Position numbers and translations under genes: made by a program. Below the pieces are notes generated by a model. That model saw only the letters and a program-made list of their open reading frames with translations. It made no database searches and had not been told where the DNA came from. 64,000 nt of DNA from Eledone cirrhosa (lineage: Eukaryota). Shown piece after piece: positions 1 to 43,712 of this stretch (position 1 is the first letter of the stretch; every line of letters starts with the position of its first letter). Where the stretch lies: contig OZ024746.1 in assembly GCA_964016885.1 (NCBI GenBank), forward strand, positions 23,684,001-23,748,000, written 5' to 3'.

Positions 1-389
1 TTTACACAAACATGAATTAGCCTACATAAAACAGATACTTCTACTTCTTCTCATATATCTATCTATCTATATATATATATTTATAGTCTTACTTCTTTTA
101 TAAAAAGTGAACATTTGTATTTCAATATCTAAGTCAATTGAACATTTTCATTTGTTTAAGCTGTGCTGCCCATAAATTACTGAGATCACGCTGTGCATCT
201 GTTTAAGCTATAAACCAATATAACCTTTACGTAGCCAAATATAAAATGTGTAGAGTTAGCCAACATTTTCAATCAATTTAATGACTCTTCTATGTTCTAT
301 AAATAATAATTCTAATTTGTTAACTTCCTGTTCTGTCTAACAAATGTCACCAACATTATTCTCTCTGGATTTATCACAGTCACTAAATA

Positions 390-570
390 ATTGTTTCTAC
401 TTTAGGCACAAGGCCAGCAATTACCCAGTGCATTACTGGTACTTTATTTTATCGACCCCGTAAGGATGAAAGGCAAAGTCAACCTCGGCGGGATTTGAAC
501 TCAGATCGTAAAGGGACGTAACTATGCTGGAAAGCATGGCGTCCGACCCTCTACCGATACTGCCAATCCA
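390..570 (-). mobile_element. tRNA-derived SINE family A (about 180 bp, Meta-domain-like core), young copy
   Basis: Minus strand reads ggattggcagtatcggtagag (A-box-like) ... gagttcaaatccc (B-box) ... gcctttcatccttacggggtcgataaaataaagtaccag ... gtagaaacaattatt. It is nearly identical to the copies at 5890 and 6105. The Meta-domain assignment is from memory of the consensus. Confidence 0.85.
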
Positions 571-639
571 TTGCCCTTCACAGTCACTAAATAATAGTTT
601 CTGATTTAGGTACAAGGCCAACAATTTTGGGGAGGAGAA

Positions 640-1040
640 ATCTGAGTTCAAATCCCACTGAGGTTAGTTTTGCCTTTCATTCTTATGGGATCGATAAAAT
701 AAAGTACCAGTAAATCACTGGGGTCAATTTAATTGACTTCCCCCGCCACCTCCACATTGTTGAGCTTGTGCCTAAATCAGAAACCATTATTATTATGATG
801 ATGATGGTGAGGATGTGTCTTGACTTCAGTATTCAGAAAAGCTGGAATATTAATTAATTGTTTCTACTTTCGGCACAAGGCCAGCAATTACATAGTGCAT
901 TACTGGTACTTTATTTTATCGACCCCATAAGGATGAAAGGCAAAGTTAACCTCGGTGGGATTTGAACTCAGAATGGCAAGGGCCGTAACTCTATGCGGCA
1001 AAGCATGGCGTCAGACCCTCTACCGATACTGCCATTCCAC
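640..1040. mobile_element. Two further SINE A copies (partial + strand 640-790; - strand 858-1040)
   Basis: Same B-box and gtcgataaaataaagtaccag core, in opposite orientations. Confidence 0.75.
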
Positions 1041-4000
1041 CATATCTACCAGCTGGAATATTAATTAATAAAATGTTTTCCATGATGACATATAGCTTTT
1101 CTTTTATCAGTTACAAGAACCAGTTCATAGCAGACTGATGTAATAGACAATTTAACTGAACTCTTTCTTACTTATTATATTTACAATTTTTATTCTTTTA
1201 CTGGTTTCAATCATTTGACTGTGGCCATGCTGGGGCACCACTTTAACAACATCTCAAGTGCTAATGCCACAATAAAATTCACCCAGTACACTCAGTAAAG
1301 TCATTGACAATTGGAAACAACATAGTGTAGAACAACCTCTCCAGTGCTGGTGCTATGAAAAGATGCACCCAGTACACTCTGTAAAGTCATTGACAATTGA
1401 TTGGAGACAACAGTGTCGAAATGGCTCTTTAGTCTTGTCAAAGAAATAACAATCACCAACATTTAGAATGTATAAATGTGATGTGGTTCCGTGCCCCATT
1501 TTTGAAAGTAGCATCTCTGAATAAGATATTAGTTCTGTCTCTAATAACCCATCTTAACAACTTTCTTTCTAATTTTTTTACCAACTACTGAGTAGAATAT
1601 TTGATGATTTGTGCAAAAAATATCTTAAATTGAAAGTTATTGCTTGGCAACATATTGATGTGCACTGCACCAATACAAATGACTGTGTGGACATACACTT
1701 GCACAACTTAAATGGAACATTACACCCAACCCATATTAGTGTGAAAGTGGGTGTAAAATATTAGTTTCTAATTTTGGCACAAGACCAGCAATTTTTGGTG
1801 GGGGAGGGAGGGAAAGTCGATTATATTGATCCCAGTTCTTTACTAACATTTTATTTTTGTTTTGTAAAAACTGATGCCTTCTTGTTATTATTTCCACCAG
1901 CTCAACCCAGCGCAGCCCAGTCAAGCCCAACCCAGCCCATCCCAGCCCATTGCTCTCGCTATGGCAGCAATTATGAGTGTGAATTAATTTATCAATTGGT
2001 TTCTGAGAAATATTTTGATTAACAAATCTTCTATTGTCTACAGATACATTTCTTCATAGTTACAGTTGCAAACCATCAAATAATATTATATAAGACTTTA
2101 TCTCTTGTTGAAACAGCTGCCTGCAAGGAATCTATATTGATTATTGATAATTCAAGACATTGATTAAAGATTTGTTTGTTTATTATTTTATTTTTTATTA
2201 TTTACTTTTTTTTTCTTCTTTATCTTGTCTTCTTATCTATTTCCATTTTTGGTGTTTCCTTTGAGGCAGTCTAGACATATTGAACATTGTTGCTAAATAA
2301 ACATGGAATTCTTTGATAGAAAGAGAAAAACATGGTTACACCTGGAATGCACAGGAAATCTTATTAAAAGATCAGAAGAAATTCTGGAGGAAAAATATTG
2401 TTAATCTTCATCTATTTATCTATTTTTCCCATTTATTTACGCTATATATTTATTTTTATATAGACACATTCTATTTCATTTTTTTTTTTTACTCCAAGCT
2501 CTTATAGATTAATCCATCCATTCACAATTAAATATTTTTTAAAAATATAGATTCAAAGGCTTCAAGGAAATTAATGCAACACATGTTATATTTATTTACT
2601 TTTTTAAACTGTGATTTAACCCAACTAACTTATATACATATTATGGTAAGTGTCTTGTTCACAGTTACTGTAAGATTAAAATGTCATCTATTGAGGGAAA
2701 TATCAAGACATCATGTCATCTGTGTAACAACTTTAATCCAAACCAATGGTTCTTAAACCTTTTTTTGCTCCATACATCACAATAACACATGGAAAAAATA
2801 ATAATTAGCACATTTTCCACCACCACCACTATCACCTATGATGCTCTACCAACACTCTCATCCACTGCCTTTTAAAATATAAATAAATATAAGAAATATA
2901 ATTAAATGTGATAACTATCTGTCCATGGACCCTTAATTCTTAACAGAATCATGGGGGTGGGTGGGGGGTGGGGGGCAGTTAAACCTGGCAGAGTCTATCC
3001 CTTTCCAATTCAGAATGCAGGTGATTTTTTTTCAGAGAAAGTGAAAGAGAAGAATTGAGAAAGAAATATATATAGGTGAATAATCTACCCCAGTAGTGAA
3101 CTGGTATTATATTTATCAACCTCAAAAGAATTTGAACTGAGGGTGAAGAGAACGAGAACCAATACAATAAAGCAGTCTATCCAATGTACTAACAACTCTG
3201 CCAATTTACCACCTAAAGTGATTACTCCACCGTTATGTGGGTCGGAAGAGCATCCATCTGTAAAAAAGCAATTACTCTGATATAACAGCAAAAATACAAG
3301 AGAAAACTAAAAAATATTTATCGGCATATAATCCAATTATTGGTGATCAATTGGTGTTCAATAATCTATCAATATATGGAAAGTATGACAAATATAGTTA
3401 ATAGTTTGATCCTTTTTTTATTTTTTCTTTATAAATATATAGAAGCCCAGCAGCACGAAAAACAAGAGCTGTTAAAAGGGTGGATGAACTCCTCAGAGTT
3501 ATCTGCCATCCAACCGAACTATGGGTTAAATAGCCTCACCAACCTGCAATTGGCCAAGTGTAGTGTGTATGGCTACATCCTTGACATTAACAAAATCAAA
3601 TAGAAAGTGGTGGAGGTCAACCAAGGAGAGGCTCCTCCAACAGTAGTAAGGAAACCTTGGATTGGATTGAATAGTGAAGGATATAATAGATTCTGTGAAT
3701 ATTTACAGCAGTGATACACAGAACTATAACAATTTTTTTTATTCAACTATAATAAATCTTTAACAAAAACAAGATCTGAAAATGGTTGATCAAAAAGAGA
3801 TCATATTTATACATATATACATTACTTAGTGGTTAGGCTGTTTGATTCATAAACATAAAGTTGTAATTTTAATTTCTGGATTGAACAGCACAGTTAGTCC
3901 TTGAGCAAGACACTTTATTTTTTTATACCTTCAGCCTAATACAATGTGCATCTTTTCTCCTTTTTCCAATTATGTGCCCCCCTCCTAAAAAAATTATTTC

Positions 4001-4260
4001 AACTTACAGTTTGGCAAGTTGACACAAATCTGGTTCTTGACACTTCTTGCTCTGACGACAAAAAAAAAAAAAAAATATTGAGATTGCGTTATTCACTACA
4101 TGGTCTAAACTAATCCATGTTAAATTATGTTACAGGTCAATGAAAACCAAGCAGATATGTTACAATGCATGGAATGTGACTTAGAAGCTGATGTAATCAT
4201 CTTAAGGGTTTTAGGAAGAACTTACTTTTCATTGCTACAAACTTTACATATATTCTTTTA

Positions 4261-4600
4261 TTCTACTCTAATCCTCCTGGTTCCAGACATTAGGATATGG
4301 CCATACTGGGACACTACCATTTATTCTGTATTTCATCGCCTGGTTTCAGACATTAGACTGTGACCATACTGGGGTACCACCTTCTATTCTACTATAATCC
4401 TCCTGGTTCCAGACATTTTGATATGGCCATACTGGGACACTACCATTTATTCTGTATTTCATCGCCTGGTTTCAGACATTAGACTGTGACCATACTGGGG
4501 TACCACCTTCTATTCTACTATAATCCTCATGGTTCCAGACATTTTGATATGGCCATACTGTGACACTACCATTTATTCTGTCTTTCATCTCCTGGTTTCA
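4261..4600. repeat. Tandem repeat with a 126-bp period, built from two related ~63-bp subunits
   Basis: ttctact(c/a)taatcctc recurs at 4261, 4387 and 4513. Both subunits share cctggtt(c/t)cagacatt...ccatactggg. Confidence 0.9.
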
Positions 4601-4835
4601 ATTATTACAGGTGCACCTATTTCAAATTTCTCTCTATCCTCTCTCTCACCTCTCTTTCTCTCCCCCCCCCTCTCTCGCTCTCTCTCTCTCTATATATATA
4701 TATATATGCATATACAGATGTGAAAATACGCACTTAATCTTTCATTTTATGCTTTTAAAATCTGAGTTCATTTCCATAAGTAACTGTCAATGTACATACA
4801 GACAGTACAGTCCCTACTTTCTGCTGCCATTAACT

Positions 4836-6400: not shown

Positions 6401-7207
6401 CAATGTGAAATAATAATAATAATGATGATGATGATGATAGTCATTATCATTATTATTATTATTATGATGATGATGATAATAATTCTCAAGTCCAAATGGT
6501 TACACCTTAGCAAGAAGCCATTTGTGATTATAAATTTCCATCTCAGCCAATTTTCAATTATATTGAATTTGCAAACTTTTCTTCAGCTACATCAAATAAT
6601 TCTTTAAATTAATATTATCCTACATCAAAATCAATTTTTAGGTGGAGAATCATCAATATTGATGGAATCTTAGCTCTGAAGGAACTATGAAGAATGGTCA
6701 TCTCTGTGTGCTTTATATTTTTTCATGCTAAATAATTAAAACAAAACCCTAACAAATATGGTCATCCCTATGGTTGAGTGGTTAAAGAGTTTGCTTTGTA
6801 ATCACATAGTTTTAGGTTCAATCTCACTGAATTGTACCTAGGATAAGTTTATTTTTTTATCGCCTTGGGTTGAGCAATTGTTTGTGCATGAAATATAGTA
6901 GTAGGAATCTGCAGAAAACTATTGTTTCATGTAACTGCCAGATGAAGCAATAGCCAATATACATATATATATGAATACATACATGTGTATTTTTTCTCAA
7001 TCTTTTTTCCATTCCTTCCTCTTCTCATTCTCTTTCTATTTCATCTTTTATTTCTCATTCTATCTTCTGATGAAGGACTAGTGTGTGAAACGTTAATACT
7101 CTTTTCCTATTATTTCAAGCATTAAACTAATATATTTCTTCACTGTACTGTGTCATTTACTTTGTTATTCACGTTTACTTTATATATATATATAAATATA
7201 TATATAT

Positions 7208-31500: not shown

Positions 31501-31693
31501 ACCAGTGGTAGTTGTAATAAATAAGATTTGTGCAATAGGCCATGTCATGTTAAAGCTTCTACTGTCCCATAAATACATTTCATTGGACTGGACTGCATGG
31601 AACCCCCCCTAAAAACATGGTTAGCTACTGTTATTGAGAAGAGAAGGGGTTTTTTTATGGCTCCATGGAGATGGAAATAGAGTCTTGTTTGTC

Positions 31694-31732
<39 letters not shown>

Positions 31733-31740
<8 letters not shown>

Positions 31741-32312
31741 ATACTTGGGGAGGGTCATATTTGTGTAATATTGCCAGAATTAATAACAGAACACACTCAC
31801 TGTTTGGTTGGTTTTCGCTTCTCGCTTCTGTGTCTTTTATATCGGTAATCTAACTTACTCGGTCCTCAATGTTGCCATTGACTGACCGACGGTCAAAAAT
31901 AATACAGATACAATATAGACACAAACACATATATATAGTTTATCATAAATCTTTCGTTGCACATCTGCATGGCGTAGACATATAATACAACAGGAGGAAA
32001 CGATAACACCACTGACGATGTTGCAGATGTGCAACGAAAGATTTATGATAAACTATATATATGTGTTTGTGTCTATATTGTATCTGTATTATTTTTGACC
32101 GTCGGTCAGTCAATGGCAACATTGAGGACCGAGTAAGTTAGATTACCGATATAAAAGACACAGAAGCGAAAAGCGAAAACCAACCAAACAGTGAGTGTGT
32201 TCTGTTATTAATTCTGGCAATATTACACAAATATGACCCTCCCCAAGTATAACAATATTTGTTTCGACACACGATTTCATATAAAAAACCTTGCAAAACT
32301 AATTCATCGCCG

Positions 32313-32313
<1 letters not shown>
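31733..32313 (+). mobile_element. Fold-back element 1: 237-bp inverted arms + hammerhead + ORF-start tail (Penelope-like inverted pLTR)
   Basis: Arms 31733-31969 and 32022-32258 (one mismatch seen), 52-nt spacer, unpaired 3' tail to 32313, (TA)n on both sides. Confidence 0.8.
32006..32050 (+). ncRNA. Minimal hammerhead ribozyme core (imperfect stem I)
   Basis: acca-CTGACGA-t-gttgca/gatg/tgcaac-GAAA-gatt-TA-tgat. Confidence 0.65.
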
Positions 32314-32377
<64 letters not shown>

Positions 32378-32568
32378 CCAAAACATGGTTAGCTGGTGTT
32401 GTTGAGAGATGAAGAGAATTTTCATGGCTCCATGGAGAAGGAAATATAGTCTTGTGTGAATATATATGTATATATACACACACATATATTTATATACATA
32501 TATTTATATACATATACACACATATATTTATATACATATATGGTTTATACACACACACACACACACAC

Positions 32569-32642
<74 letters not shown>

Positions 32643-32840
32643 AATAGGAACCAGTAAGACCCCGACGGCTGAGCTGAAGCCGTTTCGACGGCTAATTCTG
32701 GACCAGAATTAGCCGTCGAAACGGCTTGAGCTCAGCCGTCGGGGTCTTACTGGTTGCTATTACCCACTCTACTACCTCAAGTATTGAGTACTTTGGTGCG
32801 TTATGGTCCACCTGGTTCCTTACCACATTTCCTTCGTTAT
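32643..32840. mobile_element. GC-rich 119-bp palindrome with unpaired 3' tail, inside (TA)n
   Basis: Palindrome 32643-32761 centred on 32702 with two mismatches; contains gtcGAAAC; the tail carries gtattgagtac. Confidence 0.75.
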
Positions 32841-33155: not shown

Positions 33156-33370
33156 TTAGAAGTGCCCAAAAAACATGGCTTGCTGTTGTTGGGAGATGAA
33201 GGAATTTTTCATGGCTCCATGGTCAAGGAAATACATTCTTGTGTGAATATATTTCTCTTTGTGAAAGTAACGAATGAGTGATTGTCATGAAAGGTTATTG
33301 GAAACCATTGAGTTACTGTATATATATATGTCTGTCAGTCTGTATGTGTGTGTATATATATATATATATA

Positions 33371-43141: not shown

Positions 43142-43700
43142 ATATTGTTATACTTTGGGAGGTCATGTTGCCAATAAGAATCACACGCACCAGTTGCTTT
43201 CACTTCAATTTAATTTAATATATATTTATAAATTACAAATTTATAAATTTCTGGTTGTTGGTTGGTTCCACAACCAGATAGTTGTTTATATATCTATAGT
43301 CATAGTTCTTTCGTCACACACTCTGTGACCTCTTCAGTGACTGGGGATTTCTTCTTCGTTACTGTGCCTTTCCTTTCTTCTATCCTACACAAACAAAATG
43401 GCGTAGGATAGAAGAAAGGAAAGGCACAGAAACGAAGAAAGAAATCCCCAGTCACTGAAGAGGTCACAGAGTGTGTGACGAAAGAACTATGACTATATAT
43501 ATATAAACAACTATCTGGTTGTGGAACCAACCAACCAACCAGAATTTATAAATTTGTAAATTTATAAATATATATTAATTAAATTGAAGTGAAGCAACTG
43601 GTGCGTGTGTTTCTTATTGGCAACATGACCCTCCAAAGTATAACAATATCGGTTTCAACACACGATTTCAGATAAAGAATCTTGCTAAACAAATTCAGAA
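43142..43700 (+). mobile_element. Fold-back element 2: ~247-bp inverted arms, hammerhead in both arms, ORF-start tail
   Basis: Arms 43142-43388 and 43403-43649, 14-nt loop acaaacaaaatggc; termini and tail are homologous to element 1. Confidence 0.82.
43450..43494 (+). ncRNA. Minimal type-I hammerhead ribozyme (mirror copy on the minus strand at 43298-43342)
   Basis: agtca-CTGAAGA-g-gtcac/agagtgt/gtgac-GAAA-gaac-TA-tgact; stem I agtca/tgact is perfect. Confidence 0.8.
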
Positions 43701-43712
43701 ATGTATATAATA

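Follow-up and report, generated by a model that had tools for sequence, protein, structure and literature searches.

A fold-back element in the 64,000-nt stretch of Eledone cirrhosa DNA analyzed here (the window) raises the question of what kind of sequence leaves two inverted arms, a hammerhead motif at their junction, and a tail outside the repeat, and by what reaction such a structure inserts. We consider it probable that the fold-back is a young Penelope-like element (PLE) insertion made by asymmetric twin priming on the capped sense RNA of one source.

Anatomy of the Insertion

Two arms of 237 nt each (31733–31969 and 32022–32258) are identical at 236 of 237 positions, with a sole mismatch pair at 31821/32170, and enclose a 52-nt spacer (31970–32021). 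These near-perfect arms, the spacer, and the unpaired tail were described in the initial annotation and are borne out by the sequence. In the U numbering used below, U1 is window position 31969, the internal end at 32258 is U290, and hammerhead stem II spans U52–67.

The sense arm (31969–32316, + strand) is a pLTR that runs from just past the likely transcription start to the tail end, where its last 4 nt overlap a TA run; it is 98.5% identical to the pLTR of a tandem parent element, L156. At its 5′ end, positions 31969–31977 (+) carry ATGGCGTAG, part of the AAAAATGGCG motif at the putative transcription start. The four A's upstream of ATGGCGTAG are missing from the window copy; it is just upstream of this A run that an extra G occurs at junctions. 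At its 3′ end, 32233–32316 (+) holds the first 28 codons of the PLE ORF (MTLPKYNN...), which contain both the internal end (32258) and the tail and continue into an RT–EN ORF in L156. The unpaired tail occupies 32259–32316 (+); copies end at ~32303 or ~32316, and the long tail end adjoining TA has 1,572 exact copies. The other arm (31733–31969, − strand) is the reverse complement of 32022–32258 without the tail, and we infer that it is cDNA primed at the internal site. In the sequence, (TA)n target flanks the element at 31711–31732 on the left and 32314–32374 on the right, and of 44 paired copies, 41 have (TA)4 or longer next to their tail end, on a side that was not used for selection.

The left outer end adjoining TA has 4,202 exact copies genome-wide, compared with 0 for a reversed control, and the element is therefore neither chance nor an assembly artifact; copy number together with varied junctions led us to reject the latter. 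A MITE or foldback DNA transposon was likewise rejected: Arm lengths range from 35 nt to ~2.8 kb, the spacer is variable, the tail lies outside the repeat, and the parent is a retroelement, so that what we see is not the fixed-length terminal inverted repeats around a constant interior that mark a MITE. The element is a 5′-truncated, inverted-pLTR insertion of a young, endonuclease-coding PLE in (TA)n and, as such, an ordinary PLE fragment. None of the anatomical features noted earlier is new to PLEs: The inverted pLTR, the tail, the bulged hammerhead, and the (TA)n targets have all been published, and PMC8557442 describes elements with (TA)n targets, an inverted 5′-truncated copy, and a tail confined to a single end.

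The Parent Element and a Sister Family

A DNA search of the 3.0-Gb host genome returned 1,226 candidates for the family of the 31733 element (family A), and most of the 40 that were scored are 98–99% identical over U1–344. Other copies extend upstream of this segment into a long AT-rich 3′ UTR and the ORF. The parent locus L156 is a tandem pLTR–ORF–pLTR with a unit of 4,053 bp, in a frameshifted copy. Its ORF starts at the ATG equivalent to window 32233 and encodes, in order, an asparagine-rich stretch, RT, a linker of the form CX4CxxC, and a GIY-YIG-type domain showing the CCHH pattern. The RT carries YVDD and matches Pfam RVT_1 at E 1.8e-5, under the cut-off. The C-terminal VVY..C..C..YIG domain was read from the sequence and has no match in Pfam, and one homologue carries PF01541, the GIY-YIG domain. 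The linker that joins RT to EN is present in families A and B (the latter introduced below), as is the CCHH pattern, with two cysteines between VVY and YIG and histidines downstream. Partial tandems form the pLTRs: They are direct in L156 and L157, and an inverted pair is adjacent in 48 of the 90 sampled loci. Among 26 longer homologues, the closest named protein is an Octopus vulgaris hypothetical protein (62%).

Judged by its domains, the parent is an EN+ PLE of the Neptune/Nematis type by the definitions in PMC8557442. It shares with those elements, which have a CX2-5CxxC linker, one ORF with RT plus a GIY-YIG-type EN at the C terminus, the linker itself (CX4CxxC here), CCHH, partial tandems, and a hammerhead in the pLTR; it differs in a tail of 45–58 nt rather than 30–40 nt and in DKS replacing DKG.

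A second element in the window, at 43142–43703 (+), belongs by sequence comparison to a related family, B. Its arms (43142–43388 and 43403–43649) flank a 14-nt spacer. The terminus, central motif, extra base after CUGANGA, and 3′ tail that the two elements had been said to share are indeed common to both: They align over 77 nt at 84% across terminus and tail and have the same ATGGCGTAG and hammerhead layout. The likeness of architecture holds for the layout but not for the inner break, which lies elsewhere in the 43142 element and leaves its hammerhead wholly inside both arms.

Family B has 1,940 candidates, and families A and B have the same internal end, tail, and (TA)n target. The initial annotation read the two elements as subfamilies sharing one insertion mechanism. 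Related Penelope-like families with one layout are what we find, but they are sister families rather than subfamilies, because their parents are only 63% identical over 337 aa. Their terminus is shared because it comprises the first 25 codons of the ORF, of which 14 are identical, 6 synonymous, and 5 changed, with differences by codon position of 2/1/8; the arm interiors, which look unrelated, are fast-evolving UTR. No mixed A/B pair was noticed among 48 paired loci.

Two further observations concern the range of copies. Fold-backs can be very long, with arms of ~1.8 kb at L094:3440-7126 and a tail-less arm of 4.2 kb at L158. Locus L097 (G000:C1:42149679-42150278) holds a single small fold-back unit repeated three times in tandem, with identical junctions; this array is a fold-back stub amplified in satellite-like fashion.

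The Hammerhead and the Inversion Breakpoint

A minimal type I hammerhead motif with a conserved core lies at 32008–32049 (+), with cleavage predicted after 32045. It reads CTGACGA (32012–32018), an extra T (32019), stem II (32020–32025/32030–32035), GAAA (32036–32039), and GATT-TA (32040–32045). As first annotated, it straddles the spacer and the right arm, and the left arm stops inside stem II: The inner end of that arm mirrors 32022, within the 5′ strand of the stem. The motif has the CUGANGA and GAAA core, an extra base before stem II, G10.1–C11.1, and palindromic stem III of minimal PLE hammerheads. It also resembles those of PMC4209133, in that helix II is long and helix I short, a further base lies between positions 9 and 10.1, stem III is palindromic, and pairs occur on opposite strands 100–700 bp apart; the sole difference, a C–A mismatch in stem I of family A, is not substantial. 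Stem III is 2 bp.

An Rfam search of 31940–32120 returned no hammerhead at E ≤ 10, only microRNA-like hairpin noise, and a ViennaRNA single-strand fold of the window copy contained stem II only (z = −0.3), without the full family A hammerhead. Because neither gives full support, we base the hammerhead call on core conservation and on two stem II pairs in which the changes between A and B compensate, with 95.7% of cells paired across four rows representing only two lineages. Within family A, 32040–32045 occurs in two main stem III variants, a G–U pair with the triplet end UA or a G–C pair with UU, and the fold is kept in both.

Since the window copy breaks in stem II, hammerhead folding or cleavage might fix the inversion point, as proposed at the outset. 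We examined the first 92 listed places of the left outer end (of 4,202), which represent 90 loci chosen by outer end alone, 30 with 1.5 kb of sequence and 60 with ~4.2 kb. An adjacent sense arm was present in 48 loci and absent in 36, and 6 ran off the stretch. Inner ends were variable, from U256 to beyond −3,500. Stem II contained 2 ends among 75 at risk, or 0.0017 per nt, within the 0.0008–0.0045 breaks per nt of other pLTR windows of at least 16 nt. Breakpoints thus show no stem II clustering above most of the pLTR, and with no such excess the stem II break in the window copy is best read as chance; the 43142 element breaks elsewhere.

Of 20 loci checked in a targeted search, 5 begin precisely at U78 (window 32046), the predicted cleavage product, and the remaining 15 are point or indel variants or breaks elsewhere; one of the five, L194, extends into the ORF and is preceded by an inverted tail arm. 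Breaks within 3 nt of the cleavage site account for 27 of 91 matches, compared with 13 of 76 at a control site (scored by eye, with a few duplicated loci), an apparent excess of about twofold once anchor match rates of 25/54 and 33/54 are considered. The stretch is AT-rich and locally palindromic, which favors microhomology there, and cleavage was unneeded in vitro (PMC11167929). Overall, ribozyme-set breakpoints appear very improbable, and the hammerhead would be a passenger from the pLTR.

End Asymmetry and Arm Lengths

A census of inverted pairs drew on fetched family A loci gathered by several end-specific patterns and hence not random. It comprised 91 distinct pairs: 71 internal+tail, 1 internal+internal, 1 tail+tail-like, and 18 complex. 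In 71 of the 73 clean pairs, one arm ends at U290 and the other in the tail, at ~U348 in 53 cases and ~U335 in 18. The outer ends are therefore fixed and unequal.

The inner ends follow another asymmetry. Among the 48 pairs of the outer-end sample, the arm that extends further 5′ is the tail-less one in 30 and the tail arm in 13, with 5 equal within 5 nt (Wilcoxon p 5e-4, 44 pairs). The difference in favor of the tail-less arm reaches ~2.8 kb, and tail arms are often short: Of 44, 17 stop either in the tail itself or at most 49 nt from the internal site.

These lengths bear on self-priming, in which one cDNA, or an antisense transcript as in the proposal for rotifer PLEs (PMC3846280), folds back and copies itself. 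The geometry of the window copy taken alone, with a longer tail arm and a sense spacer, also fits snap-back, as do 13 + 5 of the 48 pairs, whose tail arm equals or exceeds the other in length, and some junctions fall on small natural palindromes. The longer tail-less arm of the other 30 pairs contradicts snap-back as a general route, because a folded cDNA cannot copy sequence that was never made; a fixed outer end and an extra G on both arm types (below) would also be unexpected from an antisense template. We regard snap-back as improbable.

Allele Sharing Between Arms

At subfamily-diagnostic sites, the two arms of one insertion disagree in 10 of 267 comparisons, compared with 122 expected at random (19 loci), so the arms of one insertion come from one source lineage. 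Such sharing may reflect subfamilies active in turn or inter-arm conversion and so does not prove one RNA. The one arm mismatch of the window copy falls at a site with two common alleles (53 and 38 arms) and fits either a pair of templates or a change that recurred.

The other reading to weigh is dual priming on two RNAs: Each DNA end would take its own RNA, whether both came from a single source element or from contemporary ones, and a protein dimer would set the start sites. The arms duplicate the same sequence, which from one RNA would need strand displacement or both pLTRs of a tandem transcript; the 10 diagnostic mismatches, one of them in the window copy, would also be accommodated. Dual priming has been proposed for L1 (PMC2837659), and minimal hammerheads act as dimers (PMC4209133). 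Against it, 257 of the 267 comparisons agree, the 17 of 44 tail arms that are short would fit obstruction by the other cDNA growing on one RNA, and in 5 of 48 pairs the two arms stop at matching bases, to within 5 nt. We consider two RNAs unlikely, though less so than snap-back.

An Extra G at the Putative Transcription Start

The AAAAATGGCG motif, which we take to resemble a YY1 site, is preceded by an extra G at many arm ends. Family A yielded 79 matches before AAAAATGGCG, comprising 55 junctions and 24 continuous copies, and the junctions carry 41 G vs. 14 C (p 3.6e-4). Family B showed 91 G vs. 9 T among the 100 matches listed of 126; its first 30 loci gave 25 G junctions, 3 T junctions, and 2 continuous copies. 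Of 26 family B G sites checked, 25 are junctions, on 9 tail-less arms, 15 tailed arms, and 1 unscored arm. At least nine family B head-to-head pairs, among the matches listed, end at the extra G on both arms.

In L1, cap copying shows as an additional G at the 5′ end (PMC11702581, PMC9341517). Taken with that precedent, the extra G at AAAAATGGCG points to transcription starting there and to a capped sense RNA as template: From the junction analysis, the G on arms ending at AAAAATGGCG is likely a copied cap, and the shared central ATGGCG/AAAAATGGCG motif is probably where transcription begins and cDNAs run off. Some G's may instead be templated or arise from microhomology, because G variants occur in continuous copies (15 in family A, 1 in family B) and because the parent's C and four A's correspond in family B junction copies to G and five A's, a change of two added letters rather than one. 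Breaks near the start, in the unbiased sample, number 10 of 71 at risk, or 0.0039/nt, which does not stand out from the 0.0032/nt of the adjacent AT-rich stretch.

A Proposed Twin-Priming Account of the Fold-Back

Under asymmetric twin priming, the endonuclease would cut (TA)n on both strands, one DNA end priming at the internal site (32258) and the other at the tail site (~32303 or ~32316). Each of these three priming sites ends in AT or TAT, merging with the (TA)n target. Each cDNA would then grow 5′ as far as the cap unless it failed earlier, after which the two cDNA ends would be joined, presumably by short microhomology; apparent junction overlap is present in 30 of 48 pairs. In the window copy, the sense cDNA would have run to ~5 nt from the RNA 5′ end and the other cDNA would have stopped in stem II by chance. 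Such a stop ~5 nt short of the cap would explain why ATGGCGTAG lies at the center of this copy. Against twin priming stand the 36 of 90 outer ends without an adjacent sense arm.

A broader reading, toward which we lean only slightly, is that head-to-head Penelope insertions are a programmed product. An asymmetric dimer would use a single capped, unspliced sense RNA to prime both ends of the target, at two fixed positions 45–58 nt apart, and one reaction would have left as its fossils the tail, the cap-derived G of each arm, and the inverted pLTR. Transcription would start on the YY1-like AAAAATGGCG common to the two families, and an antisense-template model would be unneeded.

Relation to Known Systems

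The closest biochemical parallel is Poseidon, the PLE of Anolis carolinensis (PMC11167929): In vitro, both strands are cut and extended, two internal RT start sites inside the ORF bound the tail, the protein is a predicted dimer, and targets are AT-rich. Start sites there show no strand difference in vitro, whereas here the two ends almost always differ; nor is there homology to the target, whereas all three ends here finish in AT/TAT merging with (TA)n. That study leaves later insertion steps unvalidated.

The Penelope families of Adineta vaga (PMC3846280) are alike in that pLTR and tail hold the first ORF codons, pLTRs are inverted, the ORF has an asparagine-rich insert, and 5′ junctions show microhomology. 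Their authors favor antisense self-priming, whereas the present data favor a capped sense template primed twice. L1 twin or dual priming (PMC2837659) likewise involves internal priming on the RNA by the second DNA end, giving an inverted segment; its internal site varies and its segments do not overlap, whereas here the site is fixed, the arms are duplicated, and inversion is usual.

Both PMC3846280 and PMC8557442 name as open the origin of inverted pLTRs and tails, including sense vs. antisense template. What is new here is the pairing of internal and tail ends, the often longer tail-less arm, allele sharing between arms, and the extra G at AAAAATGGCG. We found no published report of these four statistics in a search that covered few subscription papers; earlier statements may exist. 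Because the family is young and has thousands of copies, it is useful chiefly for its family-wide signatures: End asymmetry, arm lengths, allele sharing, and extra G are genome-scale testable constraints on PLE insertion and locate the likely promoter.

Donor-Like Sites

Some EN+ PLE families carry a spliceosomal intron in the 5′ UTR. The GTAAGT donor-like site noted after the ribozyme is present at 32133–32138 (+), but it does not characterize the family: Of 57 scored arms, only 23 retain GT, a major family A subfamily has AT at 32133, and the G>A variant is abundant also in contig sets. No counterpart was seen in family B. A second site, GTGAGT at 32191–32196 (+), keeps GT in 63 of 64 scored arms and has a family B counterpart, GTGCGT at 43601–43606; going by sequence, it is the better candidate for an intron. 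Four contig sets of unrecorded type contained no GT–AG joint, a result without bearing on splicing or expression.

Neighboring Repeats

Other repeats surround the element. Three diverged copies (75–83%) of an 85-nt unit, each followed by a microsatellite, lie at 31606–31692, 32376–32459, and 33165–33245, and the 31733 element sits between the first two; the unit had no match in other fetched loci. A near-perfect 120-nt palindrome with almost no spacer (32643–32764) has matches in 48 of 345 fetched loci and is another abundant repeat found near (TA)n. The short repeat immediately after it (32765–32822), also in 48 of 345 fetched loci, often ends in (TA)n and is possibly the end of another TA-targeting element.

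Hammerheads recur in this setting. A decayed hammerhead-like core of a different repeat family lies at 7067–7100 of the window, with matches in 10 of 345 loci and intact versions, with a 5-bp stem II, at L006 and L107. At least six further hammerhead families occur in the flanks of L071, L092, L041, L059, L075, L162, and L160, so that the Eledone cirrhosa genome shows many ribozyme-bearing repeats near (TA)n. At L092 (oriented 1–4814), a tandem array with a 467-bp period, in two inverted blocks, adjoins a family A insertion.
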